NCBI GenBank assembly: GCA_964507445.1
Contig: CAZDQF010000012.1
Coordinates: forward strand, 65,989 to 129,988
Reading direction: 5' to 3'
Origin: an uncultured Isosphaeraceae bacterium
Lineage (GTDB): Bacteria; Planctomycetota; GCA-002687715
Length of the DNA stretch: 64,000 nucleotides
Position 1 is the stretch's first letter. Each line of letters starts with the position of its first letter. The notes below the pieces were generated by a model. It searched no databases, was not told the DNA's origin, and saw only the letters and a list, made by a program, of their open reading frames with translations. The translations under genes were made by a program, and so were the position numbers. Positions 5,370 through 55,582 of this stretch are shown piece after piece.

Positions 5370-6125
5370 TTGTTGATGAACATGAACGAGCCAACACCAC
5401 CATCAAGTGATCAGGCAGCGGACGGCGCGAGGTTCGCTCGCTACGAGTTGAAGATCGTGCTCGCGCGGGCGGAGGCGGAGCTGGTCCAGGCCTGGGCGAC
5501 TTCCCGCCTGGCACCGGATTCCTTCGGTGACGCGGAGGGGCGCTACGAGGTCCGCACCGTTTATCTCGACTCCCCTGAACTCGAGATCTACCAGCGCCTG
5601 GGTGACGAGCCGGGTACCAAGTTCCGCGTCCGACGCTACGGCGAGGAGGGCGAGGTCTGGCTGGAGCGCAAGCGGCGCCGAGGAGACCGGGTCCGGAAGC
5701 TGCGGGCCAAGTGGCCCCTGGCAGACCTCACGACGCTCCTGGACGGGCGCGGCTCGCCCCGGCAGTGGCCCCGCCGTTTCCAGGATGCGGTGAGAGGCCG
5801 TGACCTCGCGCCCGTGCTCCTCGTCGTGTACCCCCGCTCGGCGTTCTCCGGCGAGGGCGACATCCGCCTCACCCTCGACTGGGGGGTGAAGGTCTGGCGC
5901 ATGCGGGTGGATGAGGACGTGTTCAGCCCCAAGGGGGATCCGACAGAGGTCACCACGGACGTGATCCTGGAGTTGAAGTTCGACGGCGACATGCCCGAGC
6001 TCTTCGCCGAGCTGATGACCATGCTCGGCCGAGACGTGGGGAGCTTCTCCAAGTACGGGCGCGGTGTGGAAGCGGCTGGGTTGGCGGTGACCAGCGATTC
6101 GTCAGACTCTCCTGATGATGAGTAG
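5370..6125 (+). CDS. VTC (polyphosphate polymerase-like, CYTH-type) domain-containing protein
   Basis: N-terminal ARYELKIVL motif typical of bacterial VTC domain proteins. Paired with a downstream DUF4956-like membrane protein, a widespread conserved gene pair. The start may be slightly downstream. Confidence 0.55.
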   Translation: MLMNMNEPTPPSSDQAADGARFARYELKIVLARAEAELVQAWATSRLAPDSFGDAEGRYEVRTVYLDSPELEIYQRLGDEPGTKFRVRRYGEEGEVWLERKRRRGDRVRKLRAKWPLADLTTLLDGRGSPRQWPRRFQDAVRGRDLAPVLLVVYPRSAFSGEGDIRLTLDWGVKVWRMRVDEDVFSPKGDPTEVTTDVILELKFDGDMPELFAELMTMLGRDVGSFSKYGRGVEAAGLAVTSDSSDSPDDE

Positions 6126-6810
6126 TGACGCGATCGCCTTGGCGGACCTCTTCGCCTGGTCCCGCGACGACATCCTTGACGCCGTCTCCCGACTGCTCCT
6201 GTCGTTGATCCTGGGTATCGCCGTCTCTGGTTTCTACGCCTACTCCGCGCGGCGACGGCCCGAGGCCATGGCACTCGGCGGCACCCTGGTGCTCCTCTCC
6301 GTGCTCATCACCATGGTGACCATGGCCGTGGGGGAAAACACCGCGGTGGCGTTCACCCTGGTCGGCACCCTGGCCATCGTCCGTTTCCGGACCACCGTCC
6401 GCGATATCAGGGATACGGCGTTCGTCATCTTCGCCGTGGCGGTGGGTCTCGCCATCGGCGCGGGGAATCCCCTGGTGGCGGTGGTGGGCGCGGTCATCGT
6501 CGGTTTCTCCTCTATGGTCATCGCCAGATTCGGCGGCGACGCGCCCATGGACGACGCCCCCGTCCCGGGCCGACTTTCCATGCGCCTCGAGGGCCCCGGC
6601 CCTCACCAGGGGCCGGTGGAGGCGTTGCTGAAGGATCGGGTCCGGCAGTTCCGGCTCCTCGAAGTCCGCCTCGATGGACGCGGCAACACCCGCATGGCCT
6701 ATGAGGTGGACGGGGCGGCCGAGGACGGGGCCGGGCTGGTGGCGGCCCTCGACTCCGTCGACGGTGTGTTGCGGGTCAGCCTGTCCTTCGGCGCGCCAGA
6801 GGACATCTGA
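6115..6810 (+). CDS. DUF4956-like integral membrane protein (partner of VTC domain protein)
   Basis: Multiple hydrophobic helices. Start overlaps the VTC gene stop (translational coupling). Assignment is by conserved synteny with the VTC domain protein. Confidence 0.5.
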   Translation: MMSSDAIALADLFAWSRDDILDAVSRLLLSLILGIAVSGFYAYSARRRPEAMALGGTLVLLSVLITMVTMAVGENTAVAFTLVGTLAIVRFRTTVRDIRDTAFVIFAVAVGLAIGAGNPLVAVVGAVIVGFSSMVIARFGGDAPMDDAPVPGRLSMRLEGPGPHQGPVEALLKDRVRQFRLLEVRLDGRGNTRMAYEVDGAAEDGAGLVAALDSVDGVLRVSLSFGAPEDI

Positions 6811-6828: not shown

Positions 6829-9789
6829 TCAGGCTCCGAAGTCGATGACCACGTTGGTGACCTGCGGCAGCGTCGGTACCGGCGCCCCCACGGGCACCAC
6901 CGGGTAACTCAGGGTGATGCGCATGCGGATGAACCGGTTGCCGCTGAGGGTGTAGATCTGGGATCCCGGAACGGCGGCGGTCACGGTGGTCAGGTTCGGT
7001 TGCGTAGGATTGGTGACGCTTCCTTGCGCGGCCTCGTAGAGGATGGTCACCGTCCCCGTGGTGCCGCTGACGAAGGTCTCCGTGGCGCCGGTGAACGTGG
7101 GGTTGGTGAAGCCGGTATCGAGGAACTCGGACGTGGCCGTGTCCTCGATGGTGTTCGGGTTGCCCGGCACCATCATCACGGAGACGTTGGCTCCTCCGAG
7201 GACGTTGCCCAGCGGTTGGAAGAACGACGCGTTGACCATCCCGTCAGCGTCCTCGAACTGGTAGAGACCCACGCCTCCGGACCCGCCCAGGTGACTAGAA
7301 CAGGAGCTGCCCATACTCCCGCCGGCCACGCTCAAGGTCGCCGACGAGGAGATCTGGATCTGGGCCAGAGACTGCATCCAGAGCATCCCGCCGGAGCCGG
7401 CGCCGCCGTTTCCTCCGAAGAAGAGGTTCCCCTGACCGCCGTCTGCGCCTTCGAGGGTGATGACGGCGGTAGGGTTGAGTTGGATGACCCCCGCCGCGCC
7501 CACATAGAGACCGCCTCCGCCGCCGCCTCCGCCGCCGCCCTGATCGTCGTTGGGTGCCCCCGTCAACTCGAAACGGTCACCGCCGCCGCCCCCTCCTGAA
7601 CCGGCCGAGAGATTGCCGACGGGGAGGACCATGGCTGACGGGACCGGCGCCGCCAGGGCCACGGTCTGCACCGTCGGCACTAACGGCACGCATAGGCCTG
7701 ATATCTGCGAAAGCTGGTACGGCCCACCGTTGCCACCCTGGGCCCAGGCGGAGCCCCCGGCCCCGCCGAGGCCTCCGAGCTCACCGACCATCCCGCCAGC
7801 CGGGAACCGGAAGCCGCCGCCGCCACCGCCGCCGCCACCGAAGGTGGGGTTGGCTCCGGAGGGACCCGTGTTGGGAACCCCGGCCTCCGGCGGACCGAAC
7901 CCGGATTCACCCTGCGCCGTGCGGGTGAGGTACCCCGACTGGGAGGCGCGCCCTCCGTTGCCTCCGCTGACCCCGGCGACGCCGCCGCGAACCACGGAGT
8001 TGGCTGCGCTCGCACCGTTATTGAACCCGCCGCTGCCAGGGCCTTGTTCAGGACTTCCGGTAGGGGCCGTCGAAGACATGCCGGCGTTGCCGCTGAGCGT
8101 GCCGTCGATGAACACCTGGCCGCTGCATCGGATGTGTGCCCGTTCCGTTCCGATGATGCGGACGTTGGCGCCCGGGGCGACGAATACGGTGTGCGGCTGC
8201 CAGAGCCCTGCGGCGAACCCCGTTGATGGCGGCGCGCCGGTGTCCAGGGTCCCGGATCCGGGAGGGAGCGTCATGAGCCCGAAGCTGCCGTCGCCTCCGA
8301 TCACGGTGCCGTTGAGGCCGGCGATGCTCAATGCGCCTCCGCCCCAGGTCATGAGACTGCCGACCTGGGCTGCGGATGCGCTGGAGTTGAAGTTCTCCGT
8401 CAGGGGTGGCTGCGGCGTCGGGGCGGCCCCCTGGGTGACGAACAGCAGCGGCGCGCCCGGGCTCCCGGGGACCAGCTCTACCGGATTCCCCGCCGGGTCC
8501 GTGACCACCGGGTCCACCTCGAATCGGAACGTGGACCCGGCCGACAGGGGGCTGGCGGCGACGTACTCGATGCGGGACCCGGGGCCCAGGGCGCCCCCTG
8601 GTCCGGTGTAGGTGACGCTGCCGGGGATCTGGATGCCTCCCAGCGTGACGTTCACCAGCCGCACCGTGGTGATGTCCACCGTCCCGCCGAGCAATCCCTC
8701 GTTGAGGGTGACGCTGACGGTGTTGGCGGCGATGGAGCCCACCGGGATTGCTGCCGGAGCGGGATTCGCCATGGCGGGCACGGTCCCGATCACCTGAGGT
8801 GAACCGGGAGAGACGTCCGTGAAGGAGGCCCCCGGATTGGCGGCGGAGCACGGCCTCGTCATGAAGCAGGCGTTGATGCTCCGGGTGATGGGGCTGCCGG
8901 CCACGGTCACCACCGGGCCGCCGGCGGTGACGTCCGGGACCTGCACCGTGTACTGGGAACCCGGAGCGAGGCCGGCGCCGTTGCAGGTGAGCGCGCTCCC
9001 CGCCACGGCGGGGAGGAACACCACCAAGCGCTGGTTCCCCGCAGGCAGCAGAGGATCGTCCTGCACGAAGAACTGCCCGGCGGCGTACTCCGGACCCGAC
9101 GGAGTGGTGCGGAAGATGTTGATGGACCCCGATGCCGATCCGGCGGTGGGGAGCGATGAGGGGTCGACGGGTCCGCCGAACATGAACGTGAGGTCGTTGT
9201 TGAGGAAGACCCCGCCGATGCAGGTGCCGGTCCCGTTGATCACGCCTCCGTTGTTGGACCAGAACGGAGCGGAGACACCGCCCACGTAGACCGCTACGGG
9301 TTCCACCACCATCGGGGCGAAATCCAGCGCCGCCGTGAGTCGCAAGCCTGTGGCGGCGGCGGGGTCCGTGACCACCGCCTGTAGCCCTACTGGCGCGACC
9401 GCGCCGGCGCCGCCGCCGTTGAAGAAGCTCACCTGGAAACTGCCGCTCCCGTTGAGTTGAGCGATGGGTGCGGTGGGGGAACCGGGAGTGAGACCGTCCA
9501 GGACCACGGAGAAACCCGATGCCGTGTAGTCCAGGTCCACGAGGCCTTCTGGGAGGGTGGAGAACCCGGCCGAGACAGTTCCGGCTCCAGCCAAGAATGG
9601 GGTGTTGGATGCCGCGGCGCTTCCTTGCAGGGTCAACTGCACGACGGTGCCTCGCAGACCACCCAACTGGACGGGGTAGGGCGGGCCCCCGAGGGCGCCA
9701 TTGGCTGTCAGGCTTGCGGTCGAGGCATTGGGTTGCTGCGCGCAGAGGCAGATCGCCAGAGCGAGGCTGATGACTGTTATCCGGAACAT
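6829..9789 (-). CDS. Secreted glycine-rich repeat protein (unknown family; paralog of 52203-54902)
   Basis: Signal peptide MFRITVISLALAICLCAQQ. Poly-Gly runs (G9-G10) and GNLFFGGNGGAGSGG, FRFPAGGMVG, VGLYQFEDADGMV blocks shared with the second copy. Ser/Thr/Gly/Pro-rich throughout. Confidence 0.7.
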   Translation of the reverse strand: MFRITVISLALAICLCAQQPNASTASLTANGALGGPPYPVQLGGLRGTVVQLTLQGSAAASNTPFLAGAGTVSAGFSTLPEGLVDLDYTASGFSVVLDGLTPGSPTAPIAQLNGSGSFQVSFFNGGGAGAVAPVGLQAVVTDPAAATGLRLTAALDFAPMVVEPVAVYVGGVSAPFWSNNGGVINGTGTCIGGVFLNNDLTFMFGGPVDPSSLPTAGSASGSINIFRTTPSGPEYAAGQFFVQDDPLLPAGNQRLVVFLPAVAGSALTCNGAGLAPGSQYTVQVPDVTAGGPVVTVAGSPITRSINACFMTRPCSAANPGASFTDVSPGSPQVIGTVPAMANPAPAAIPVGSIAANTVSVTLNEGLLGGTVDITTVRLVNVTLGGIQIPGSVTYTGPGGALGPGSRIEYVAASPLSAGSTFRFEVDPVVTDPAGNPVELVPGSPGAPLLFVTQGAAPTPQPPLTENFNSSASAAQVGSLMTWGGGALSIAGLNGTVIGGDGSFGLMTLPPGSGTLDTGAPPSTGFAAGLWQPHTVFVAPGANVRIIGTERAHIRCSGQVFIDGTLSGNAGMSSTAPTGSPEQGPGSGGFNNGASAANSVVRGGVAGVSGGNGGRASQSGYLTRTAQGESGFGPPEAGVPNTGPSGANPTFGGGGGGGGGFRFPAGGMVGELGGLGGAGGSAWAQGGNGGPYQLSQISGLCVPLVPTVQTVALAAPVPSAMVLPVGNLSAGSGGGGGGDRFELTGAPNDDQGGGGGGGGGGLYVGAAGVIQLNPTAVITLEGADGGQGNLFFGGNGGAGSGGMLWMQSLAQIQISSSATLSVAGGSMGSSCSSHLGGSGGVGLYQFEDADGMVNASFFQPLGNVLGGANVSVMMVPGNPNTIEDTATSEFLDTGFTNPTFTGATETFVSGTTGTVTILYEAAQGSVTNPTQPNLTTVTAAVPGSQIYTLSGNRFIRMRITLSYPVVPVGAPVPTLPQVTNVVIDFGA

Positions 9790-14017: not shown

Positions 14018-15580
14018 TCAGCGGAGGCGTAGCACCAGGCCGCCGTCCGATGTCCCGTGGAGCAGGGTCATGTCAGCGGGGAGGGAATCGGCGTCGAACC
14101 AGCCGCCGGGCCGGCGGTTGGCGGACCTTGGCATGATGACCAGCAGGGTGGCTCCCTTGCTCCTGGCGAAGGCCAGCAGGCCCTCGGAGGTCGCGCTGAC
14201 AGGAGTGGGGACCCACCGGGCCCCGGCATGGAACGGCACCCGCGAGTCCGACGCCATCACCAGGTCGCCGTCCGCCACGTGCTCTCCGACGACCTGCGCA
14301 AGCTCCTCGACCACCAGGTGTCCGCTCTCCGCGAACTCCCCGTGTCCGTGGAGAACGCCGCGGAGGCTGGAGAGGATCAGGATGGCGCAGCCGACGGCCG
14401 CCCACGGCCGCCCCGCGAGCCCGCGCCCGGCCCACAAGGCGGCGGGCAGGGCGAGGGGTGCGAGGTAGCGGATGAGCGTCTTGTAGACCGATGCGGTCGC
14501 GAAGATGTAGAGCCCCATGACGAGCAGCAGGGCGTCGAGGGACCGCGTGGAGCGGGAGCGGCCCCGGTCGCGCAGGGCCAGCCAGACCGGCAACAGCCAG
14601 AGCAGGGAGACCACCCCCTTTCCCGAGACCAGGGTCCAGGCGTTGCGGATTCCGTTGTGGAACACGTGGCTGGCGATCGCCGACGGATTCTCTGCGAAGA
14701 GGGTGAACGCCCCCGGACCTCGCCACGGGGTGTTGGGCTCCAGCCACGTCCCTTCCTGCCGGCCCTCCGCGTCTACGGCGTAGTTGGCCTGCTCCAGGGT
14801 CATGCCGCGGCTGAAGCGGTCGATGGTGGCGAACACCCGCGCCGACTTGCCGGCGAAGGTGGCTTCATCGGTCACCCCATGGACCCAGATGGGGTAGGGG
14901 AGGGCCACCAGCCCGAAGGCCATGAGGCACGCGCTCGGGGCGAACCAGCGAGATCGGTGGGGCGCCCGGTCTCCCGTCCGAAGAGCGAGGAGGATGGCCG
15001 CCGCGGGTCCCAGGAGCACCATCTCCACACGAGCCAGGTAGGCCAGCCCGAAGGCAACTCCGGTGCTCGCAGCCCAGGCGAGCCGTCGGGTCGCCGCTGC
15101 CCTCTCGAAGCAGAGCGCCCCCAGCGCCATGGCCATGATGGTGAGGGACTCGCTGAACACGGCGGCCCCGGTGAGGACGAAGGCGGGGCCCAGGGCGACC
15201 AGAACGCCGGTCCACCAGGCGGCTCTCCGACCTGCCACGCGCGCGGCCAGCACCCAGCAAGCCAGGACGGTCACGAGGCTGGCCAGGCAGGACACGGCCC
15301 GCCCCGCCGTCTCCGCACCCACCCCCGTCACCTTCATGGTGGCGGCCATGCCGAGGGAGTAGAGGGGCGGCAGCATCAGCTCCGGTCCGTCCATGAGGCC
15401 GACGTAAGCGCCGTCGCGGACGAGGCTCTCGGCGATTCTCCCGTACTCCGAGCCCTCGATCTCCACCACGTGGGTGAACAGGAGGATGCGCACGATCCTG
15501 ACCGCCAGAGCCAGCATGAGGAGGGTGTAGAGGTCCCGACGCGGCGGCGGGAATGGAGGGGCGTCAGGGGCGGTGGTCAC
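14018..15580 (-). CDS. Glycosyltransferase family 39 (ArnT/PMT-like, dolichyl-phosphate-mannose-protein mannosyltransferase family) membrane protein
   Basis: About 12 predicted TM helices, an N-terminal loop typical of the GT-C/PMT family, and a C-terminal soluble domain. The long antisense ORF 14057-15652 is rejected. Confidence 0.7.
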   Translation of the reverse strand: MTTAPDAPPFPPPRRDLYTLLMLALAVRIVRILLFTHVVEIEGSEYGRIAESLVRDGAYVGLMDGPELMLPPLYSLGMAATMKVTGVGAETAGRAVSCLASLVTVLACWVLAARVAGRRAAWWTGVLVALGPAFVLTGAAVFSESLTIMAMALGALCFERAAATRRLAWAASTGVAFGLAYLARVEMVLLGPAAAILLALRTGDRAPHRSRWFAPSACLMAFGLVALPYPIWVHGVTDEATFAGKSARVFATIDRFSRGMTLEQANYAVDAEGRQEGTWLEPNTPWRGPGAFTLFAENPSAIASHVFHNGIRNAWTLVSGKGVVSLLWLLPVWLALRDRGRSRSTRSLDALLLVMGLYIFATASVYKTLIRYLAPLALPAALWAGRGLAGRPWAAVGCAILILSSLRGVLHGHGEFAESGHLVVEELAQVVGEHVADGDLVMASDSRVPFHAGARWVPTPVSATSEGLLAFARSKGATLLVIMPRSANRRPGGWFDADSLPADMTLLHGTSDGGLVLRLR

Positions 15581-15603
15581 GGTCAGAACGGTACACTGCG
15601 GCC

Positions 15604-17088
15604 ATGCTCACGTCCCGAACTCCATGGTGTGTCGCATCGGTGCTGCTCCTGATCCTGTCATCGGAGCGTGGGCTGGGGCAGGGGCGGCGTCTCCTGGTCC
15701 CCCGTGATCACGAGACCGTGGCCGCGGCGCTCGAACAGGCGCGCGCCGGGGACGTGGTGGAGGTGGGGGCGGGGGTCTTCGAGGAGAACGTCACGGTCGG
15801 ACCCGGCGTCACCCTGCGTGGGAAGGGACCGGACAAGACCATCATCCGCGGAGACCCGGGGGCATCGGTGCTGACCGCCGTCGCCGGGGACAAGGTCCGG
15901 ATCGAGAAGATCGCGCTCGAGCACCCCAAGCCCGAACGCCCCGCCAAGCGTGCTCCGGCGGTGGTGTTCCTTCGCGGCCGTGACATGCACCTGCAGGACG
16001 CCCGGATCGGCACGGGCCATGGTCCCGGGGTCCTCATCACCGACGGCAGCCTGGAGGCCGTGGGGCTGGAGGTCCGGGACTGCGTCGGGAGCGGGCTGCA
16101 CGTCATCAACGCCGACGCGACTCTGTCCCGATGCGTCTTCATCTTCAATGGCGGCGCCGGCGTTGAGGTGAACGGACCCTCCGAGCTGTCCATGCGGAAG
16201 AGCTCGGCGGAAGCCAACAAGGGCTGCGGCGTCGACGTGAACGGTGAAGGTGCGCGGGCGACCTTGGTGGAGGTCATCAGCAAGCTGAACGTCCGGAAGG
16301 GGGTCCGGGTGATAGGCGCCTCGGGGAGCGCCAAGGACTGCCAGTCCCTCAGCAACGAGGAGGACGGATTGATCTGTCGCGGCTCCCCCGCCTTCGAGCT
16401 CGACGGGGGCGTCATGAAGGGCAATCGCACTCTCGGTGTGTGGATCGGAGGTGAAGCCAAGGTCGTGATCAAGGGCACCAGGATCCTCGGCAACGAGTCC
16501 GGCGGCCTGACGGCGGTCCACGCCAAGACCGATGTCCGCATGACCGACGTCACGGTGTCCGACAACAAGGCCCATGGCATCCGCATCACCCAGGGGGCCC
16601 GGGGGGAGGTCCGTGATTCCACCTGCTCCGGCAACGCCCACTCCGGCTTGAGCGCGGCGGACGAAGGCACCCACGTCGTGTTTGAGAAGAACACGTGCAC
16701 CGGCAACTTCATGCACGGGCTCGCGGTGGTGGAGAAGGCCAAGGGGCGCCTCAAGAACAACACCGCCTCCAACAACAAGATCCAGGGCTTCGGCGTGTTC
16801 GGCAAGGCGGAGGCCCACCTGGAGCGGAACAAGGCGGAAGGCAACGGCCACAATGGCCTCCAGGTCTGGAAGGCTGGCAAGGCCGTGCTCGAGCGCAACA
16901 CCTTCGACAAGAACGGTCAGAACGGCATCGAGGTCAACGGCAAGGGCAGCACCATCCAGCTCAAACGCAACCGGTGTCGGGGCAACGCGTCTTATGGCGT
17001 CCTCTTCGTCTCCGGCGCGGAGGGGTTCAAGGTGGGCCGCGACAACGAGCTCAAGAAGAACCGCAAGGGGCGCGTGCGCGTGAAGTGA
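15604..17088 (+). CDS. Secreted right-handed parallel beta-helix repeat protein (pectate-lyase/NosD-like fold)
   Basis: Signal peptide MLTSRTPWCVASVLLLILSSERGLGQ. Many about 22-aa PbH1-type repeats (GxxGxxV.N, ...G..V.G). Converges on the giant gene, with a hairpin between them. Confidence 0.72.
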   Translation: MLTSRTPWCVASVLLLILSSERGLGQGRRLLVPRDHETVAAALEQARAGDVVEVGAGVFEENVTVGPGVTLRGKGPDKTIIRGDPGASVLTAVAGDKVRIEKIALEHPKPERPAKRAPAVVFLRGRDMHLQDARIGTGHGPGVLITDGSLEAVGLEVRDCVGSGLHVINADATLSRCVFIFNGGAGVEVNGPSELSMRKSSAEANKGCGVDVNGEGARATLVEVISKLNVRKGVRVIGASGSAKDCQSLSNEEDGLICRGSPAFELDGGVMKGNRTLGVWIGGEAKVVIKGTRILGNESGGLTAVHAKTDVRMTDVTVSDNKAHGIRITQGARGEVRDSTCSGNAHSGLSAADEGTHVVFEKNTCTGNFMHGLAVVEKAKGRLKNNTASNNKIQGFGVFGKAEAHLERNKAEGNGHNGLQVWKAGKAVLERNTFDKNGQNGIEVNGKGSTIQLKRNRCRGNASYGVLFVSGAEGFKVGRDNELKKNRKGRVRVK

Positions 17089-17163: not shown

Positions 17164-20100
17164 CTATAGCCGGTCCGGGAACTTGCCCCAGGTCACGGAG
17201 TACCCGAGGGGCGCCAAGGGGTTGATGAACGCACCCTGCACGGTGATCTGGATTCCGAGTGGGGGGTTGGGAAGGGTGAAGGGTCCCAGGTCGAAGTGTC
17301 CGTTCGGGTCCATGGTGGCGCCGGAGGGCGGGGCGAAGGTGCCGATGCCGTCCACCAGCGGGATGATGCTCGGCGCCGGGTAGGGCAGCACGGAGAGGAC
17401 GAAGTCCCCGGTGGGGTTCGGCCACGGGTAGATGGGCGTCGGGTTGCTCACGTCCACGACGCAGAGGAAGGGCATGTTGGGCATGCCGTTCTCGAAGTGG
17501 GCGATGTAGGTCTCGCCGGGTAGCGGGCCGAGCGGATGCCGGATCCCGATGCCGAGGTTGCTCGCGGGGCCGCCCACAGAGTGAGCCTTCGGATTGGACG
17601 GCACCGTGTGGGCGTTCTCCACCGCGATGGCGACCCCGCCTCGCTGCTGCACTCCGGGGTGCGTGCCCGGGATCTGGCACTGCAATTCCGTCGAGCTGAT
17701 GAACGTGGTGGAGAGCGGGAACTCATCGGCATAGGCCACGGTGCCCGGGTGGAAATTGGCGCCGAAGATGGTCACCGGATGGGGCGGGCTGGCGGGGTTC
17801 ATGATCGGACCGCCTGCAGGCTGCAGAGACGAGATCACGGGGGCGAGGACCGGGAACGGCAAGGCGCCGGAGATGCCGCCGAAGCCCATGCCGGTCACGT
17901 CGATGTTCTCCACGTCGATGTTCGCGGTCCCGGGTTGTCCGATAAGCGCTGCGGACACCAACCCCTGGACCTGCGTGTTCGAGACGTAGGTGGTGGGGAT
18001 CGCCGTTCCGTTCCAGCGCACCATGGTGGCGCCGTCGAAGAACCCGGTTCCGTTGACGTTCATGGTGAACGTGACGTCGCCGGCGATGGCGGAGGTGGGC
18101 GCTGTGGACGTCAGCGTCGGCGCCGGAATGACGGTGTTGAAGGCGATGCTCGACACCCCGCTGCCGACGGTGGGCGCCGGATTCGTCACGATGACGGAGA
18201 ACGTTGACAGGGCGGTGATGGACGACGCGGGGACCGTGGCCGTCAGCGTGTTGGCGTTGACGAACGTGGTCGCCAGGTTCAGGCCGTCGAAGCTGATGAC
18301 CGCACCCTGGACGAAGTTCGTGCCGTCGACGGTGAGCAGGAACGCGGGTCCCCCGGCGAAGGTCGTGGCCGGCGTGGTGGAGGTCACGACCGGGTTGGGA
18401 TTGTTGATGGTGAAGGTGGCCGCGGCACTGGTGCCTCCTCCGGGAGCCGGGTTCTCCACGGTCACCGCTGCGTATCCCGCGGATGTGACGAGGCTGGCCG
18501 GGATACCGCAGGCAAGTTGGCTCGATGACACGTAGGTCGTCGGCTGCGGAGCGCCGTTCCACCGGACTACAGAATTCGTGGTGAATCCGGTTCCCTGCAC
18601 GGTGAGAGTGAAGGACGGGTCATTCACGACCGCCGACGGGGGATTGAGGGAGCCGATGGCTGGAACGGGGTTGGTGATGGTGAACGTCTGTCCGTTGGAC
18701 GTGCCGCCGCCGGGCGCCGGACTCTGCACCGTCACCGTAGCGACGCCGGGGCTCGCGATCAGCGCCGCGGGTACGGTCGCCGCAAGCGTCGACGAGTTCA
18801 TGAAGCTCGTGCTCAGAGGCGTGCCGTTCCAGTGGACGATGGAGCCGAGGGCGAAGCCTGATCCGTGGACGGTGAGGCCGAAGGACGGCCCGCCGGCCGG
18901 GGTGGAGCTCGGAGTCATCGCCGTCGTGGAAGGAGCCGGGTTCGGTACTTGTTCCACCAGCATGGTGAACCCGAAGTAGGTCGCTGCGGAGACCGGTCCG
19001 GTATCGGTGGTGCAGACGATGGCGTGGAGACCGGGCGACAAGCTGACGGTGGACGTGACCCCGTCAACGCCGCTGGCGATGGCCGAGCCCCGTGGCCTGA
19101 AGTCGGCGTTCGTCCCAGGGTCGAACAGGCGCCACTTCAAGGGCGCGGCGTTGGACATGGTGATGTTGTAGTTTCCTGCGACGGGCGCGTCGAACTGGAA
19201 CAACCGGATGACCTCGTAGGCGTTCCAGTTCTGAGGGAGGGATGGCGTACCCACGGTGAGCGGATGACCCGATCTCGACTTGATGCGCGCGCTGCCGGTG
19301 CCGCCGACGCGGCTGGCCACGCCGTGAAGCGGGCTGACCGTGCCGTTGTCCCCGTTAGCGACAACGAACTCCGACACGGCACCCGGGGATTGAGAGAAGG
19401 CGGAGCCCACCCCCAGGTCCCAGTCAGAAGTGGATTGCAGTCCCACCGCGACCCATCCCCCGGCCTGGGCCGTGAAGGTGAACGGACTGCAAGGCTCCGA
19501 GATGGTCCAGGCGCTGGACCCCTGGAGATGCGCCAACGCGGTCGTCCTGTAGTGCACGGCGCCGCTCCAGACTCGGGGTGAGAACGTCGCGCCGAAAGGA
19601 TAGGTTTTCCCGGCCCCCTCGAGGATCTGGAGGTTCGCGTCCGCCGCGAAGACCGCGCCGGGAGAGGTGCCGACGAGGTCGTTCATGGCCGCGCCATTGG
19701 TCACCGTGACGTAGAACCCCTGGGTAGAGCCCGCCGCCAACGAGACCATCAGGCCGATGGGCAAAGGCGTCGGGACGTTGCCGCCGTTGGACACGACGCC
19801 CGTCGCTGCGCCGGCCAGGGTCCATGCGCTTGGATCGTTTTCCTTACCGATGAACGTGCCCCCACCGGTCACCGTGTAAACCTCCAAGTCCCAGGTCCCC
19901 GGGTCCAGGTTGACGTCGAAGCCGCAGATGCTGACGTCGTTGATCGCCACCAGATCGAACATGTTGCCGGCCTGTCCGCTGTTGGCGGCGAAGGTGGTGC
20001 CCAGGCTCGTCGTCGGAGTCGGACCAACGACCGTAAAGGGTAAGGATGAAGAGACGCCGCCGCCGGGCCCGGTCGTCTCCACGTCCACGCTGACGACTCC

Positions 20101-23100
20101 AGCGCTTGCAAGGAGGGACGACGTCGCGTAGCCGCGGAGTTCATTCGCAGAGATGAATTGCGTCGTCAACGCCGTTCCGTTCCACCGGACCGTGGAGTCA
20201 CCGCTGATGAACTGGGACCCCATGACGGTCAACCAGAATCCCGGAGTCCCGACGGATACGCTGGTGGTGCCCAGCGACGTTAGCGTGGGAGTCGGGTTCT
20301 CGACCGTGAAGGTGGTGAAGGCGCTGCCACCTCCGGGGGCCGGGTTCTCGACACCGATGGATGTGATGTTGGCGAAGTTGAACCAACCCTGGGAGTTGGT
20401 GAGCGTCACGGTGACCGTGTTGGCGTCGATGAACGTGGTCGGAAGCGCGTTGCCGCCGCCGTTGCCGAACCTGACCACCGAAGTGGAGTTGAAGTTCGAT
20501 CCGTTGACCGTGACCAGGAGCGGACCGCTGCCGAGGAGCGCCGTATCCGGAGTCACCGAGGAAATCGTGGGCGCGGGATTGGTGATGTCGAAGGTCAAGG
20601 GGGCGGAGATGCCGCCTCCAGGTCCCGAGGTCTCCACGTCCACCGCTGCGGTTCCGGGCAAGGCGATGAGCGGCGAGGGGACCGTGGCGCGAAGCTGAGT
20701 GGCGGAGACGAACGCAGTGAGGAGAGGCGTCCCGTTCCAGCGCACGGTGGAGGACCCGTTCACGAAAGCCGAGCCGTTGACGTTGAGCAGGAACGTCGGA
20801 CCTTCGGTGAGGACGGAGGGCGGGTCCAGAGAGGTGGGCGCGGGCGCCGGGTTCTCCACAGTGAAGGTGGTCGATCCGAAGCCGCCGCCGGGTGACGGGT
20901 TGGTGACGCCGACGATCACCGTGCCCGCGGCCGTGAGCGCCCCGCAGGGCACGGTCGCGGCGACCGTGTTGGCATCGACGAAGGTCGTCGCGAGGCTGAT
21001 GCCGTCGAAGCTGATCACCGAACTTGGGACGAACTCGGAACCGTTGACGGTGATGGGGAACGCTCCGCCCCCGTTCTCGTACCAGGCGACCTTGTGGTCA
21101 GGGTCGGTAGAGAAACCTCCGAATGCCAGCGACGCGGAGAGGACGTCCATGTCACAGTCGCCGTCAAGGTCCGCGGCGAAGACGCATTCGGGGGACTCAA
21201 CGTCCATGGAGATCGCGGAGGGCGGTCCGAAGCTGCCGCCGCCCAGATTCTCATACCACGTAATTTGCTCCGGAGAACTCCCGCCGGACGCGCCGGACGC
21301 GGAGAGCACGTCGGTGTCGCCGTCGCCGTCGAGGTCTGCGGCAAACACGCTCGTGGCGGAATCAGCGCTGGCGCTGACCACCTGCTGCGGTCCGAAGCTG
21401 CCGCCGCCCATGTTCTCGTACCACGCGATCTTGTCGTCCGTAATTGAAGCCGAGAGCACGTCACGGTCGCCATCACCATCGAGGTCCGTGGCGAACACGC
21501 TCGTCCCTCCCCACACGCCAGTGGGGGTGCCTGCTGGCCCGCTCAGCCATTGCTCGGCGCCGAAGCTGCCGCCGCCGGTGTTCTCGTACCACGCGATCCT
21601 GTCCTGAGACGCGTGGAGCACGTCGGTGTCCCCGTCGCCGTCAACGTCGATGGCGAAGACACTGCGGGCGCTGCCCGCACTCGTGGTGATGACTTGCTGG
21701 GCACCGAAGGTGCCGCCGCCGGTGTTCTCGTACCAGGCGATCTTGTTGTCGAGGGGGGAAGCGGAGAGCACGTCGTGGTCGCCGTCCCCGTCCACGTCGG
21801 CGGCGTGCACGCACCAGGCGCCTGCCGCGAGGGTCGTGATGACCTGCTGGGGTCCGAACGTGCCGCCGCCGAGGTTCTCGTACCAGGCGATCTTGTCGTC
21901 GTCAAAGGAGGCGGAGAGGACGTCCGCGTCATTGTCGCCGTCGAGATCGATGGCGAAGACGCTGGTGCCTCGCTGGAGGGTGGAGGGTATGGAGTACGTC
22001 GTGACCGCTTGCATGGTGCCGAAGTTGCCGTCCCCCAGGTTCTCGTACCAACCGATCGTGTGGAGAAACGCTGCGAGGACGTCGAGGTCGCCGTCGCCGT
22101 CCAGGTCTTCGGCGTAGACGCTTCGCGGTTCACGTTGATCCAGACCATTGGTGTACGGGCTGAGCACCTGCTGCGGTCCGAAGCTGCCAAGGCCGCCGAT
22201 GACCGCCGAGGACGGCGACGTGGACGTCACCGTCGGTACCGGGTTGACGGTGTTGAACGCGACGGAGGAGTATCCGCTGCCGATGGTGGGTGCGGGGTTC
22301 ACGACGCCGACGGTATAAGTCCCAATCCCGGCGATGGACGAGGCCGGGACGGTCGCCGTGAGGGTGCCCGCGTTCACGAACGTGGTCGCCAGGTTCAGGC
22401 CGTCGAAGCTGATCACGGACGTCGGGACGAAGTTCACGCCGTTCACCGTCAGGAGGAACGCCGGACCGCCGGCGGCGGCGGTGCTCGGAGTGGTGGAGAC
22501 GACCAGCGGGTCCAGGTTGTTCACGGTGAAGGTGTTCGCCGTGCTGACGCCGCCGCCGGGAGCGGGGTTCTCCACGGTCACCGCTGCGTACCCTGCCGAC
22601 GCGACGAAGCTCGCGGGGATGGCGCACGTCAGCTCGCTCGATGTCACGTAGGTCGTCGGCTGCGGAGCGCCGTCCCATTGGATGACGGAGCTCGACGAGA
22701 ATCCGGTGCCGATCACGGCGAGGGTGAACGCCCCGCCTCCCACCAGGGTCGATTGGGGAGTCAAGCCCGTGATGGTCGGCACGGGGTGCCCGATGGTGAA
22801 AGTCTGGGTCGTCGAGATGCCACCTCCGGGGGTCGGGTTCTGGACGCTGACGCTGGCGGTGCCGAACGTCGCCACCAGAGACGCGGGGACGGCTGCCGTG
22901 AGCTGGGAGGCGCTGACGAACGTGGTGCTCAGCGGCGCTCCGTTCCACTGGATGGTGGCGTTGGATGCGAAGCCGGACCCGTTGGCCGTCAGGGTGAAGC
23001 CGCCTGCGCCGGCGGTCGTTGCCGCGGGCGAGATCGACGTCAGCGCGGGCACCGGGTTCTGGGGCTGCGGCTCAACCAGCATGGAGAAGGTGAACGGCGT

Positions 23101-34129: not shown

Positions 34130-34392
34130 TACTTCCTGGTTCCTTTGGAATGATGAGGGTCCACTGGGGTGAAACGTCGAGCGGGGGGCGGGAGACCCCC
34201 CAAGTTGTAGTGGATTCACCCGCCGCTGGGGTTTCGTGCGACAAAAAAAAGGGGATTCTGCGATTTGCAGTCGACGAAGGGGCGTCCGGAGCTCCGAACT
34301 GAGTCCCTCGGCCGGCCACGCGGCCTTCGCAAGCGCCTCTCCCGCAGTTACTTGTGCCTGCGCTCCGAGCACTCTGCGGTCGGCGCGAGGCT

Positions 34393-50925: not shown

Positions 50926-51067
50926 CAGAAGATGACTCCTGCGCCGCGCGCGCGGTCATGGTAGAGCAGAGCATAGGGGTGGGCAAGCGCGGGTGGGCCC
51001 GGTGTCCCACCCCATGGCGCTTCGCTTCCGGGCAGCGCATCCGGATCGCAGAGGACAGGACCGAATC

Positions 51068-52202: not shown

Positions 52203-54902
52203 CTACGGTGCGGTTGTGCAGTTGAGCGGCGCGGAGTAACCGAAGGTCACCGAGCTCACCGTGGGCAGCGAGTTGGTGGGCAACGTGCCGGTGCCGGAGG
52301 TGTTCGGGGTCGGGATGGTCATGCTGACCCGGAAGCGGATGTAGCGGTACCCGTCGATCTGGTCGATGTTGGGGCCGGTGACCCACGAAGAGACGCTGCT
52401 CAGATCGGGACTGCCACCAGACAGCGCTTCGAAGGCGCCCTGGTATTCGACCACGACCGTGGCGCTCGCGGGCGGATTGGTGCCCAGGCTGGTGGACTCC
52501 ATGACCGTGGCCGGATCGAAGTCCGGGTCGCCATAGCCGGTGTCGAAGAAGATGGAGAGCGCTGTCCCGCTGGTGGTGACGGAGTCGAAGGGGAACTGCA
52601 GCACGCTGATGTTGGCGCCGCCGGTTCCACCCATGGCGGGGATGAAGTTGGTCTCCACCACTCCGTCCGGGTCCTCGAACTGGTAGAGGCCGGTGCCGCC
52701 GCCGCCGCTGGCGTGATCGCTGCACGTGTTGTTGGCTGCGCCGGGTGTGACGGTCAGCTGGGCCGTGGTCGAGATGTTGATCCCCAAGAAGCTCTGGAGC
52801 CAGATCTCACCACCGGAGCCGCCAGCGCCGCCGCCGCCGAAGAACAGGTTCCCCATGCCGCCGCTGGCTCCGTTGAAGAACAGAGCCGAGCCGGGGTTGA
52901 GGTCGATGTTCTGGACCGCGGAGATGCGGAAGCCGCCGCCGCCGCCGCCGCCGCCGCCGCCCTGGTCATCTGCCGTTGAGCCCATGATTTCGTGACGATC
53001 GCCGCCGCCGCCGCCGCCGGAGCCGGCGGAGAGAATGGAGATGGGAGCGATCATGGCTGGTGGTACGGGAGTGGCGTTGGAGACGGGCTGATTGGCCGAC
53101 GTCTGGGCGATGCAGCCCTGGGCCGCGTTGGACCGAGCCTGACCGTTGCCCCCGGATTCCCATGCGGTGCCGCCTCCGCCACCGACGCCGCCCATGTCAC
53201 CCATGACGCCGCCGGCGGGGAAGCGGAAAGCTCCCGCGCCGCCCGCGCCGCCCGCGAACAACGCGTTCGCGCCGAACGGGCCCACGTTGTCCATGCCGCT
53301 GATCGGTGGGCCGAAGCCAGACTCGGCCACGTTGGTGCGAGTGGAGAATCCGTCCTGGGACGCCCGCCCGCCGTTTCCTCCGCCGACGCCGCCGACGCCG
53401 GCTTTGACGATGGAGTTGGCGGCGCTGCCGCCGTTGTTGAACGCGCCACTACCGGCGCCCTGGTTGGGGATGCCCGTCGCGGCGCTGTTGGTGCCGGCGT
53501 TGCCGTTGATGGTGCCGCTGATCTGGGCCTGGCCGAGGCAGCGGAGGTGGACTCTGTAGACGCCCTGGGCGCGGACGTTGGCGCCCGCGGCGACGGTGAA
53601 GTTGAGGCAGTCCCAGTTACCGTCCGCGAACCCAGGCTGAGCGGCCATGCCGGTGTCCAGGGTCTGGGAGCCTGCGTTGAAGGTCAGGTCTCCGAAGCTG
53701 CCGTCACCGGTGAGGGTGAAGGGGAAGGTGGAGCCGATTGCCCCCGAGCCGTCCCAGATCGCGATCCCGGTGACGGTGTCGCGGTTGGTGGTCGTGGAGA
53801 AGTCGTCCATGATGGGCGGCTGTGCGCAGAACGTGATGGGGATGGTCTGGAAGAACCGCTTGCCGCTGGTCGGGGAAGCGGGGTCGTTGGGGTCGTAGAG
53901 GACCACCGAGTTCTGACCGAAGTCCTGGATCGCCGAGGACAGCTCGAGCTCGTACTGGACGTTGGCCAGTAGCTGGGAAGAGGCGAGGTAGTCGATGCGG
54001 GCATAGCCTTCCTCCCCGGCCTCAGGAGTTCCGGTCTGGAAGAACTGCACGGAGCCTGGGACCTGCGCCCCGGAGTTGCTGTTGATCAGCCTCACGTTGG
54101 CCAGGTTGATCCCTGCGGGGAAGAGGGGCTCGCTGATGAAGATGGTGACCGTGTCGTTGGCGACGTTGCTCGGGTCGATGGACGGGGGAGAGGGGTCGTT
54201 GCTGACGGGGGTCGTGACCACCACGAACGGAGGGCCCGGGATGGGGTCCGTGAAGCAGGCGGCGGCGCCGCCGGTGCCGTTGGGATCACAGGTCGTGAAG
54301 GTCGCCACCGCGGAGTTCTGGATGGGGCCGCCCCCGACGTTCAGCACCTGTCCGCCGCCGCCCGCGCTGGGGATGAACAGGGTGTAGGGGATGGCTCCGC
54401 CGAGTCCGGCCGTGGTCGCCGGGTTGAGCGGATCGGTCGGTGGAGTCGGCAGGAAGGTGACGATGCGTTCGTTGCCCGCCGGGAAGTTGGGTGAATCGGA
54501 CACCGCGAACGATCCGGCGGCTCCGACCGTGGTCACCCCATCTGTGGTCGTGATGTTGATGGTGCCCAGGGCGACCCCGGCTTGCGGCAGCGAGGTCGGG
54601 TCCACGTTGCCCTCGAACTCGATCTCGACGGCCACGTTGAGTGGGATGTTGGCGGGCGGGTTGGGTGTCGTCGGCCCGGTTGCGCTGCTCCACAGTTCGA
54701 TAGTGGCGAAGCCGTTGCTGGTCGGCACGTTCAGCAGTCGGACGGAGGACACCAGCGACTCACCGCTGCCACCACCACCACCGCCACCACCGCCGCCGCC
54801 GCCCCCACCGCCGCCGCCGCCGCCCCCACCGCCGCCGAGTCCCATGACGGTCACCGCGACTAACGCGACGATGAGGCCAGGGTGCTTGCGCATGAATGTC
54901 AT
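52203..54902 (-). CDS. Secreted glycine-rich repeat protein (paralog of 6829-9789) with 23-residue poly-Gly tract after the signal peptide
   Basis: Signal peptide M(TF)MRKHPGLIVALVAVTVMG followed by G23. Shares FRFPAGGVMGDMGG, GNLFFGGGGAGGSGG, GTGLYQFEDPDGVV and a C-terminal YRYIRFRVSMTIP block with the other copy. Confidence 0.7.
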   Translation of the reverse strand: MTFMRKHPGLIVALVAVTVMGLGGGGGGGGGGGGGGGGGGGGGGGSGESLVSSVRLLNVPTSNGFATIELWSSATGPTTPNPPANIPLNVAVEIEFEGNVDPTSLPQAGVALGTINITTTDGVTTVGAAGSFAVSDSPNFPAGNERIVTFLPTPPTDPLNPATTAGLGGAIPYTLFIPSAGGGGQVLNVGGGPIQNSAVATFTTCDPNGTGGAAACFTDPIPGPPFVVVTTPVSNDPSPPSIDPSNVANDTVTIFISEPLFPAGINLANVRLINSNSGAQVPGSVQFFQTGTPEAGEEGYARIDYLASSQLLANVQYELELSSAIQDFGQNSVVLYDPNDPASPTSGKRFFQTIPITFCAQPPIMDDFSTTTNRDTVTGIAIWDGSGAIGSTFPFTLTGDGSFGDLTFNAGSQTLDTGMAAQPGFADGNWDCLNFTVAAGANVRAQGVYRVHLRCLGQAQISGTINGNAGTNSAATGIPNQGAGSGAFNNGGSAANSIVKAGVGGVGGGNGGRASQDGFSTRTNVAESGFGPPISGMDNVGPFGANALFAGGAGGAGAFRFPAGGVMGDMGGVGGGGGTAWESGGNGQARSNAAQGCIAQTSANQPVSNATPVPPAMIAPISILSAGSGGGGGGDRHEIMGSTADDQGGGGGGGGGGFRISAVQNIDLNPGSALFFNGASGGMGNLFFGGGGAGGSGGEIWLQSFLGINISTTAQLTVTPGAANNTCSDHASGGGGTGLYQFEDPDGVVETNFIPAMGGTGGANISVLQFPFDSVTTSGTALSIFFDTGYGDPDFDPATVMESTSLGTNPPASATVVVEYQGAFEALSGGSPDLSSVSSWVTGPNIDQIDGYRYIRFRVSMTIPTPNTSGTGTLPTNSLPTVSSVTFGYSAPLNCTTAP
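54768..54837. repeat. GGN-codon simple sequence repeat (gcc/acc triplets on the plus strand) encoding poly-Gly
   Basis: About 70 nt of near-perfect (GCC/ACC)n directly visible in the sequence, inside the N-terminus of the 52203-54902 gene. Confidence 0.85.
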
Positions 54903-55582
54903 TCCCGCGAACTCCTTGTTGAGAGAGGGCAGCCCGACCATCACCCGACGCACCCGGCGAGCGCAGCTCGGAGCTGCTGTCACCGATACGCGAGCGCAAA
55001 CGGGATACCGTTCTCCTCGCTCTCAGGGCCTATCCAGAAGCCCTTGCTTGTAAGGTCCTTACATCCGGCGCCCTTGCTGCGCTATGACGCTCGCCGTCAA
55101 GCGGAGCGGAAGCGCACGGGAGGGTTTGCCGGAGCGTCTCTCGATCCTCCCGCTTCCATCAGGCGGGAGGCGACGAGGATTGTAGGAGCGGTGCCAGGAC
55201 CGGTCAACGGCTCAGGACTTGGGCCTTGGAGGCGGGGCCGGTAACGTCCGCGCTCTCTCTCATGACCGCCGAATTCAGAAATTCCCGCAGATCATCCGGT
55301 CCCGTGCGAGGTCCTGGTTTCGTCTCCCTGGGAACCGTGCCTCCCAGGGCGGAGGAGGCGCTCGCGGCCTGCACAGAGCGAGCTGGGTGTCGACTCTTCC
55401 GTGCATCTGGCCCGGCGGCGGAAGGGGATTGGGCGGTTCAAGGCGAGCCGGATCAACTGGCCGCCCTGAGGGTCCTGGTGGCTCCCCTGGGTGACTTGGC
55501 AGGGGTCGCTGGAGCCCTGGGCTCGGCCGTGGATGCTGGACCAGGCCCGGACCCCCTCCCGCCGGCGGACCAGGACCTGTAC

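Follow-up and report, generated by a model that had tools for sequence, protein, structure and literature searches.

Two genes in the window, by which we mean the whole 64-kb stretch of DNA analysed, encode diverged paralogs of a single Planctomycetota protein family. We put at roughly one in two the probability that these proteins, here called A and B, are tethered or secreted envelope binding proteins with the domain plan collected in Table 1. Export of the family proteins would be by Sec. From N to C terminus, the proposed ground plan comprises an L-x-x-C signal, a poly-Gly tether, two Ig-like spacers (the second Big_5-like), a rigid head and a jelly-roll, and the head would be a short right-handed β-helix bearing a Gly-rich insert of about 190 residues. 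B-type members would be lipid-anchored, with the Gly tether and Ig stalk holding the head off the membrane, whereas A-type members would have replaced the lipid anchor by a cleavable signal together with some 140 aa of additional N-terminal sequence. The head would bind a ligand outside the cell, which is probably either a glycan or a surface, and the protein would act as an adhesin or receptor.

Table 1 Coordinates of the two paralogous genes, their predicted domains and an upstream promoter-like site.
Feature	Position in window	Strand	Basis or remark
Gene A, A-type paralog	6829..9789	(-)	986 aa, ATG start; ORF and translation
A signal peptide, residues 1-17, MFRITVISLALAICLCA	9739..9789	(-)	putative cleavage before conserved QQPN
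A-type-specific N-terminal region, residues 18-158	9316..9738	(-)	pLDDT below 50 in model
A Ig-like domain 1, about residues 160-315	8845..9312	(-)	all-β, pLDDT 80-95
A Ig-like domain 2, Big_5/CopC-like, about residues 328-452	8434..8808	(-)	
A β-helix module including Gly-rich insert, about residues 460-850	7240..8412	(-)	
A Gly-rich insert, residues 567-760	7510..8091	(-)	G9/G6/G10 tracts, GGx motifs
A C-terminal jelly-roll β-sandwich, about residues 866-986, GYRFIRFR motif	6832..7194	(-)	
Gene B, B-type paralog	52203..54902	(-)	899 aa, ATG start; ORF
B signal peptide n- and h-regions, MTFMRKHPGLIVALVAVTVMG	54840..54902	(-)	lipobox Cys of orthologs is Gly here
B N-terminal G23 tract, residues 23-45	54768..54836	(-)	imperfect (GGN)23 repeat, DNA read
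B Ig-like domain 1, about residues 50-210	54273..54755	(-)	collinear alignment to A
B Ig-like domain 2, Big_5-like, about residues 225-345	53868..54230	(-)	Pfam Big_5
B β-helix module, about residues 355-745	52668..53840	(-)	AF2 model of B 350-899
B Gly-rich insert, residues 467-657	52932..53504	(-)	candidate polyglycine-II lattice; DSSP and pLDDT mapping
B C-terminal jelly-roll, about residues 765-899	52206..52610	(-)	pLDDT 90-98, weak jelly-roll matches
σ70-like promoter match, TTGACC-17-TACAAT	55179..55207	(-)	10/12, ~280 nt upstream of B start codon

The two proteins align collinearly over 811 residues with 44% identity and 58% positives (BLASTP, composition-adjusted, E 9e-131), a similarity far above chance. 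Both ORFs are real, and all of the motif blocks on which the original prediction based its claim of a paralogous pair are present in this alignment. They are the only copies that tblastn detects within the 64-kb window, separated by 42.4 kb between the genes or 45 kb from start to start. GC3 is of the coding type (0.84 for A, 0.87 for B), and the ATG of B is preceded by an AAGGAG SD sequence 9 nt to its 5' side. A longer GTG start for B at 54983 is unlikely, because in orthologs this ATG is where a canonical signal peptide starts. Both genes are intact and under purifying selection, with dN/dS against orthologs of 0.32 for A and 0.27-0.29 for B (overall range 0.17-0.32). The exact A protein is present in a public collection (P0001) together with an ortholog 60% identical to it (P0002), while syntenic B orthologs with 70% identity occur in two related loci (L005 and L006). 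The promoter consensus scan returned one site, upstream of B, against 0.3 expected, and this is a weak pattern match only. Terminator scans around A and B gave none near A and none attributable to either gene, the single plus-strand match lying inside B and falling under the shuffle expectation of 1.6.

Both genes are monocistronic and lie among housekeeping neighbours, with DUF4956, VTC, RtcB, ThiF, PTPS and MutS in the window. A conserved operon partner was sought in six related loci and none was found, nor was there a conserved neighbour gene pointing to function around A, B or their homologs. ThiF turns up repeatedly beside the family genes, but either convergent with them or separated from them, and this therefore looks like inherited synteny.

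The extent of the family was revealed by an exhaustive HMM profile search. Word-indexed homolog searching did not reveal it, returning three matches only, swamped by poly-Gly words, and five only when Gly-rich windows were masked with X. The profile search gave 338 cluster representatives at E<=1e-3, of which 59 also reach E<=1e-30; many are full-length proteins of 830-930 aa, and all named records derive from Planctomycetota MAGs. Genomes contain multiple copies: there are two in the window, MAG ARS1434 has three, and L004 and L007 show tandem pairs. Scans with Pfam, NCBIfam and PHROGs models left A and B uncovered, the sole exception being a weak Big_5 Ig-like match; the Pfam scans were run at E<=1 for A and B, at E<=0.01 for 31 members and at E<=10 for isolated sub-domains. 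When PDB sequences were searched, using one sequence and two profiles, nothing covering A or B came up; the matches were limited to artificial Gly linkers, the Ig-like domain of TssM and an Obg homolog that was not significant, and no description of the family was found in the literature searched. The initial impression of an unrecognised family thus stands: no clear match to a characterised family emerged, and the likeness to haemagglutinin-type adhesins does not go beyond the fold. We regard this nameless family of marine Planctomycetota as most likely comprising cell-envelope binding proteins.

Most members carry a lipoprotein signal (L-x-x-C) in which the lipobox Cys is followed directly by G4-G9. 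A lipobox of the form [LVI][ASTVI][GAS]C is present in most members and in the B orthologs, which read MGLGGC-GGGG and MGLGCC-G13, with LVGC-G9 in L001. It is absent in A and in the window B, which reads MGLGGG. Neither window copy has a canonical lipobox, and the anchoring of A and B themselves is therefore uncertain; B, having apparently lost the lipobox Cys, may therefore be signal-anchored or released instead of lipidated. All A-type members lack the canonical lipobox and carry an Ala followed by QQPN, and their signal appears to be of the signal-peptidase-I type, with a putative cleavage site between these residues. The A-type N-terminal region is found only in A, P0002, P0008, P0012 and L003, and has no Pfam match at E<=10. 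Across 31 members the N-terminal Gly run is anywhere between 2 and 23 residues long, its length is not conserved, and it would serve as a flexible tether. Signal peptides and Gly tracts had been predicted for both copies and are indeed found in both (G9/G6/G10 in A; G23/G6/G10 in B). The (GGN)n expansion ascribed to B also exists, but not in the body of the protein: it is the codon-level G23 tract that comes right after the hydrophobic core of the signal peptide. A lipoprotein signal followed by a Gly tether is a family-wide feature, and had passed unmentioned before. To our knowledge, surface exposure of Planctomycetota lipoproteins has not been established.

Domain assignments rest on AlphaFold models of full-length A (pLDDT 77) and of B 350-899 (pLDDT 94.4, pTM 0.90, from an 85-sequence alignment). 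A Foldseek search with the full A model against the PDB returned tandem Ig domains only, and the family profile matches Burkholderia TssM in its N-terminal Ig-like domain (8pz3, E 3.8e-5). The Pfam Big_5 match on B 225-331 (E 0.048) scores 14.8 bits, under the 23.6-bit cut-off, yet Big_5 is found in 21 of the 31 members and exceeds the cut-off in members other than B. In the predicted models the following module is a right-handed parallel β-helix, with about five rungs predicted (B residues 429-466, 657-675, 699-717 and 739-744), and its best structural matches are adhesin β-helices, not lyases. The C-terminal jelly-roll is predicted to resemble carbohydrate-binding modules, and a Foldseek search of the high-confidence C-terminal B model against the PDB gave nothing better than E 0.08. 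Of the earlier suggestion of a β-helix or β-roll fibre, the β-helix agrees with the predicted fold. The β-roll does not, since tandem RTX nonapeptides are absent and HemolysinCabind gave no match, and some five rungs do not make a long fibre. The two N-terminal Ig-like domains and the C-terminal jelly-roll had not been noticed in that first reading.

Within the β-helix lies the Gly-rich insert. The Gly tracts of A are G9 (651-659), G6 (732-737) and G10 (751-760), and the lengths of the internal tracts are invariant across the family, down to under 30% identity. The contrast between these length-invariant tracts and the variable N-terminal run was not remarked on in the first reading. Conserved motifs of the insert include LGGLGGAGGSA, GSGGGGGGD and Q-G10. 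A GGx periodicity is present, with a spacing of 3 between single non-Gly residues observed 86 times against 13.3 after shuffling. The B insert is 28% Gly, and has only 22% of its residues in helix or strand at pLDDT >90; the 78% assigned to 'other' is compatible with polyglycine-II (PGII) packing, although not diagnostic of it. The isolated inserts of A and B have no Pfam match at E<=10, including to PF12810 (Gly_rich), the ALK/LTK-type model, which also has no match on the 31 members at E<=0.01. The solved PGII proteins gp38, ALK, LTK, Obg and sfAFP are absent among the Foldseek matches listed.

Judging from the models, the fixed-length internal Gly tracts are probably structural, and may pack in the PGII manner with all-Gly helices forming the core and GGx helices the edge. 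The GGx spacing and fixed tract lengths match the design rules of the gp38 and PGRS PGII sandwiches (PMC6851490, PMC9436101). It is quite possible, if less than probable, that the internal tracts (G6, G10, GGx) form a PGII helix lattice grafted into a β-helix. This would be a new natural class of Gly-rich PPII bundle, the first in a widespread cellular bacterial envelope family, and either convergent with or distantly related to the 'polyglycine sandwich' tip of gp38. Few natural Gly-rich PPII-bundle domains are listed in 10.1101/2023.11.25.568672.

The gp38 of phage S16/T2 type combines a short β-helix with extended turns bearing Gly-rich motifs, as A and B are predicted to do, and it is a monomeric binding head at the end of a stalk, to which the predicted A/B head may be likened (PMC6851490). 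Its all-Gly stretch, GGGGGGGG, has its counterpart in the G6 and G10 of A and B, and GGx-type motifs with short loops between them are common to both (PMC6851490). However, there is no detectable sequence similarity to gp38 (PHROGs) and no structural match among those listed. The loops between Gly motifs are conserved in A and B but hypervariable in gp38, and A and B are cellular proteins of lipoprotein type, with a putative PGII geometry. The mycobacterial PE_PGRS proteins, for which a PGII sandwich is predicted, also share with A and B the GGx triplets, whose Gly would face inward, a probable envelope association and multiple copies (PMC9436101). Their GGAGGX arrays are long, polymorphic and tolerant of indels, whereas the tracts of A and B are few, of fixed length and embedded in a β-helix. 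PE_PGRS membership was rejected, as A and B have neither a PE domain (PF00934) nor an ESX-5 context.

Conserved Gly-rich motifs inside a folded domain are likewise seen in Obg, ALK/LTK, snow-flea antifreeze protein and acetophenone carboxylase. The family motif GGxGNxFFGGGGxGSGGxIW resembles the Obg motif, and the top phmmer match in the PDB is the Obg homolog GTPBP10, although this is not significant (E 0.8). No significant sequence or fold match to these proteins was found, and domain context and cellular location differ. The TpsA-type proteins (HMW1, EtpA, HxuA, FHA, HpmA) share with the predicted A and B models a right-handed parallel β-helix. At 6-13% identity, A and B differ from them in a much shorter helix, with Ig-like domains before it, a 190-aa Gly-rich insert within it and a jelly-roll after it. 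TpsA membership was rejected: the signal is followed by Ig-like domains and not by a TPS domain (PF05860, Haemagg_act) with its NPNL/NPNGI motifs, and there is no adjacent TpsB partner (ShlB/POTRA Omp85). Similarity to the Big_5 (PF13205)/CopC-like Ig domains, which occur in SbsC and other bacterial surface and S-layer proteins, covers only about 110 of about 900 residues, and is uninformative on the function of the C-terminal 550 aa.

Other explanations for these proteins were weighed against that of an envelope binding protein. We consider it unlikely, while deserving some weight, that they are carbohydrate-active enzymes in which the β-helix is the catalytic domain of a polysaccharide lyase or hydrolase and the jelly-roll is its CBM. 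This would suit the polysaccharide-degrading lifestyle of marine Planctomycetota, a β-helix followed by a CBM-like jelly-roll is a frequent CAZyme layout, and there are conserved acidic and basic residues (GGGGGGD[RHK], DDQ, QxED.DG). However, no match to Beta_helix, Pectate_lyase, NosD, glycoside-hydrolase or polysaccharide-lyase families was found with sub-domains to E<=10, while a genuine PF13229 protein of the same window was readily found (E 1.7e-37). The small number of predicted rungs, the adhesin-like rather than lyase-like structural matches and the lack of any polysaccharide-utilisation gene context around A or B also speak against an enzyme. Rather improbable, too, is a structural envelope component that builds an S-layer-like surface lattice by self-assembly, in which Ig-like domains and flat Gly-rich faces would make the contacts and no foreign ligand would be bound. 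Flat PGII faces are known self-association surfaces (10.1101/2023.11.25.568672), and the multiple copies per genome would fit such a role. Against this, the Big_5 and Ig similarity is generic, the Pfam scans of A, B and 31 members revealed no SLH or other S-layer anchoring domain, and a lipid anchor with a long flexible tether is atypical for lattice-forming proteins. For an S-layer or bacteriocin role, both raised in the original prediction, we found no supporting evidence.

We think it very improbable that sequence methods have missed membership of a characterised adhesin family (TpsA/filamentous haemagglutinin, PE_PGRS or RTX). The GGxGGx motifs are superficially PGRS-like and one stretch, GGGGGDRFE, fits the RTX nonapeptide consensus (GGxGxDxUx), but this stretch is single and not part of a tandem array, and with no PF00353 match RTX β-roll membership was rejected. 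Pfam Fil_haemagg was also without a match, no TpsB, type I secretion or ESX gene lies beside A, B or their homologs (L001, L002, L007, L008), and a lipoprotein or signal-peptidase-I signal, rather than a TPS or PE domain, forms the N terminus. We give next to no credence to the view that the Gly-rich half is disordered low-complexity sequence or that the ORFs are non-functional. A Gly content of 17-19% with homopolymer runs might suggest it, as might the artificial Gly linkers among the PDB sequence matches. This reading was rejected on the high pLDDT and pTM of the B model, the tract lengths kept to under 30% identity, the purifying selection, the coding-type GC3 and the syntenic orthologs.

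Planctomycetota abound in the sea as degraders of polysaccharides, and almost none of their envelope proteins have been characterised. The present family is common in Planctomycetota MAGs, often in multiple copies, and its C-terminal 550 aa are absent from domain databases. Going by the models, it is unusual in having polyglycine tracts of fixed length inside a confidently folded domain. If there is no lattice, this is another β-helix/Ig/CBM-like surface protein, useful for annotation but unsurprising. The few solved folds of the PGII kind are those of snow-flea antifreeze protein, Obg, acetophenone carboxylase, gp38, ALK and LTK. If the PGII lattice is true, the family would provide a large natural sequence set, of hundreds of clusters, for a very rare fold that is also relevant to protein design.

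The two long minus-strand reading frames of the original prediction, here called A and B, were confirmed by ORF reading and by GC3 values of 0.84 and 0.87, a bias typical of real genes in a window of 67% GC. For B, the ATG preceded by AAGGAG is the same codon at which orthologs begin a canonical signal peptide, so use of the alternative GTG at 54983 seems unlikely. The two proteins align by BLASTP over 811 collinear residues with 44% identity (E 9e-131), and every motif block on which their paralogy had been proposed falls within this alignment. Searches by tblastn with both proteins gave no third copy in the window. The Gly tracts are G9, G6 and G10 in A, and G23, G6 and G10 in B; the (GGN)n expansion claimed for B holds for the N-terminal G23, an imperfect GGN codon repeat directly after the signal-peptide core.

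Genes and sequence features in the window, with tandem relatives in two homologous loci (L004, L007)
Feature	Position	Strand	Remarks
VTC-domain gene	5370-6125	+	convergent with A; 11-nt overlap with next
DUF4956 gene	6115-6810	+	convergent with A
Gene A	6829-9789	-	986 aa, ATG start
PMT_2 family glycosyltransferase	14018-15580	-	head to head with next, overlapping starts
PF13229/NosD-repeat protein	15553-17088	+
3946-aa protein gene	17164-29004	-	12 FG-GAP_3 and 7 TIG matches
1659-aa protein gene	29393-34372	-	Trypsin_2 peptidase domain; weak TIG_SUH below Pfam cut-off
ThiF-family E1-like gene	50993-52111	+	adjoins or lies near family gene in window, L001, L005, L008
Gene B	52203-54902	-	899 aa, ATG start preceded by AAGGAG
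B, Gly in place of lipobox Cys	54768-54845	-	compared with L005, L006, L001
Sigma-70-like match, TTGACC-17-TACAAT	55179-55207	-	about 280 nt upstream of B start codon
Tandem B-type pair, L004	10001-12388, 12553-14967		Planctomycetota assembly
Tandem B-type pair, L007	10001-12580, 12598-15162		Planctomycetota assembly

The family had been called unrecognised, and this stands: A has no match in Pfam or NCBIfam, the sole match of B is a sub-threshold Ig-like Big_5, and no description of the family is found in Pfam, NCBIfam, PHROGs or the PDB. A word-indexed protein search was flooded by poly-Gly words and returned only A itself (P0001), an A-type ortholog (P0002, 60%) and a B-type relative (P0003, 43%); masking of Gly-rich windows brought little gain. 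A profile search run exhaustively on 1.84 billion cluster representatives gave 338 proteins at E<=1e-3, of which 59 reach E<=1e-30; many are full length (830-930 aa), and the only source name encountered was 'hypothetical protein [Planctomycetes bacterium]'. When one genome per species was scanned with a pattern, four loci emerged, all of them from MAGs of marine Planctomycetota; in one of these MAGs a single A-type gene is accompanied by two B-type genes in tandem. The family is real and widespread in Planctomycetota MAGs. L007 has a second tandem pair, and such B-type pairs in two assemblies besides that of the window (L004, L007) indicate that the family duplicates repeatedly. P0149, a 1577-aa FG-GAP repeat protein, has at its C terminus (residues 1426-1562) only the C-terminal, Gly-rich beta-helix module of the family, which indicates the reuse of this module in other surface-protein architectures.

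Members typically begin with a signal peptide that closes with a lipobox Cys; Gly residues follow directly (CGGGGGG or CSGGGG), in runs of 2 to 23 across the family. A-type members depart from this: their signal is of signal-peptidase-I type, ends '...A|QQPN' and is followed by about 140 extra residues. The A|QQPN directly after the signal peptide is common to all A-type members (A residues 17-21, region 9739-9741; P0002, P0008, P0012, L003), perhaps as a conserved N terminus of the mature protein (a pyroglutamate, for instance) or as a motif for sorting. The sequence in B orthologs is MGLGGC-GGGG or MGLGCC-G13. In the window's B, Gly replaces the lipobox Cys of three orthologs (L005, L006, L001), and the Gly run is 23 long as against their 8-13. 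Neither window copy therefore has a canonical lipobox. The change in B would reflect either a true loss of lipidation, by alteration of the (GGN)n repeat, or a mistake of assembly inside that repeat.

An AlphaFold2 model of full-length A (31 sequences) has a mean pLDDT of 77, with residues 1-158 below 50 and the remainder mostly at 80-95; B 350-899 (85 sequences) reaches pLDDT 94.4 and pTM 0.90. Foldseek with the full A model retrieved tandem Ig domains only, Big_5 is matched in 21 of the 31 members (best E 3.5e-14), and the family profile matches the TssM Ig-like domain (E 3.8e-5). The C-terminal model of B gave nothing in the PDB below E 0.08, the weak matches being jelly-rolls. From these models and matches, the domain order is signal, Gly tether, Ig-like 1, Ig-like 2 (Big_5), beta-helix and jelly-roll, with beta-helix rungs mapped by DSSP string at B 429-466, 657-675, 699-717 and 739-744.

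A stretch of about 190 residues (B 467-657) parts the second and third rung groups; it is 28% Gly and has helix or strand in only 22% of residues, with pLDDT still above 90. Two more Gly-rich arcs of 21-23 residues lie between later rungs. Internal tract length is kept in 31 members, even below 30% identity: the first tract reads G-S-G-G-G-[GA]-G-G-D-[RHK], and the second is Q, ten Gly positions (only Ala/Ser substitutions), a hydrophobic residue and R-I. The one unusual feature of the family is its set of length-invariant polyglycine tracts within a confidently folded domain. In Gly-rich segments, a spacing of three between single non-Gly residues, as in the conserved LGGLGGAGGSA, occurs 86 times, a count for which shuffles give an expectation of 13.3. 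In the polyglycine sandwich of the phage adhesin gp38, and in the model of Mycobacterium PE_PGRS arrays, core segments consist of Gly alone, with GGx segments flanking them at the edges (PMC6851490, PMC9436101; polyglycine-II domains are overviewed in 10.1101/2023.11.25.568672). The insert follows the same logic, and by this analogy it may be a polyglycine-II lattice, which we would put at somewhat below even odds. No solved polyglycine-II protein is among the fold matches listed, and the sole sequence hint is a non-significant match (E 0.8) to the Gly-rich Obg fold of GTPBP10.

B is flanked by the convergent ThiF-family gene on one side and by a divergent PTPS (QueD-like) gene, then MutS, on the other. 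The gene order is the same for orthologs of 70% identity in two MAGs and for one of 56% identity on a 4.3-Mb contig. A ThiF-family gene adjoins or lies near the family gene even for the 30%-identical P0034 in L008; its adjacency is probably inherited synteny. The sigma-70-like match sits in the 320-nt divergent intergenic region common to B and the PTPS gene. A lies downstream of RtcB, convergent with the VTC/DUF4956 pair, and its surroundings are not retained in its ortholog. Gene order suggests that this pair is a two-gene unit unrelated to A and B. None of the neighbours of A or B hints at function or a dedicated secretion partner. The giant 3946-aa and 1659-aa genes are adjacent on the same strand and probably encode very large surface proteins.

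Taken together, export signal, flexible tether, Ig stalk, rigid beta-helix head and CBM-like tip point to an exported binding protein, and we consider an envelope adhesin or receptor, probably glycan-recognising, the main reading (probability roughly 0.5). The architecture itself is shown here; by inference, the signal would send the protein to the envelope, tether and stalk would carry the head in a presumably anchored and exposed position, and the head would bind the ligand. A beta-helix carbohydrate-active enzyme is unlikely, since no lyase, hydrolase or Beta_helix HMM matches, while the true PF13229 right-handed beta-helix protein in the window, a positive control for the working of ordinary beta-helix HMMs on this genome, was easily found.

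A self-assembling envelope or S-layer-like component seems slightly less probable again. Hidden membership of TpsA, PE_PGRS or RTX families is very improbable, as their defining domains and partner genes were looked for and are absent. We give least credence to disordered or non-functional sequence, against which stand the confident B model, the conserved tract lengths and a dN/dS of 0.17-0.32 against orthologs.

Ig-like, right-handed beta-helix and jelly-roll are known kinds of fold, so the family is a variant of the beta-helix surface-protein theme and not a new kind of system. If the polyglycine-II lattice is true, the family would join a very short list of natural polyglycine-II domains.
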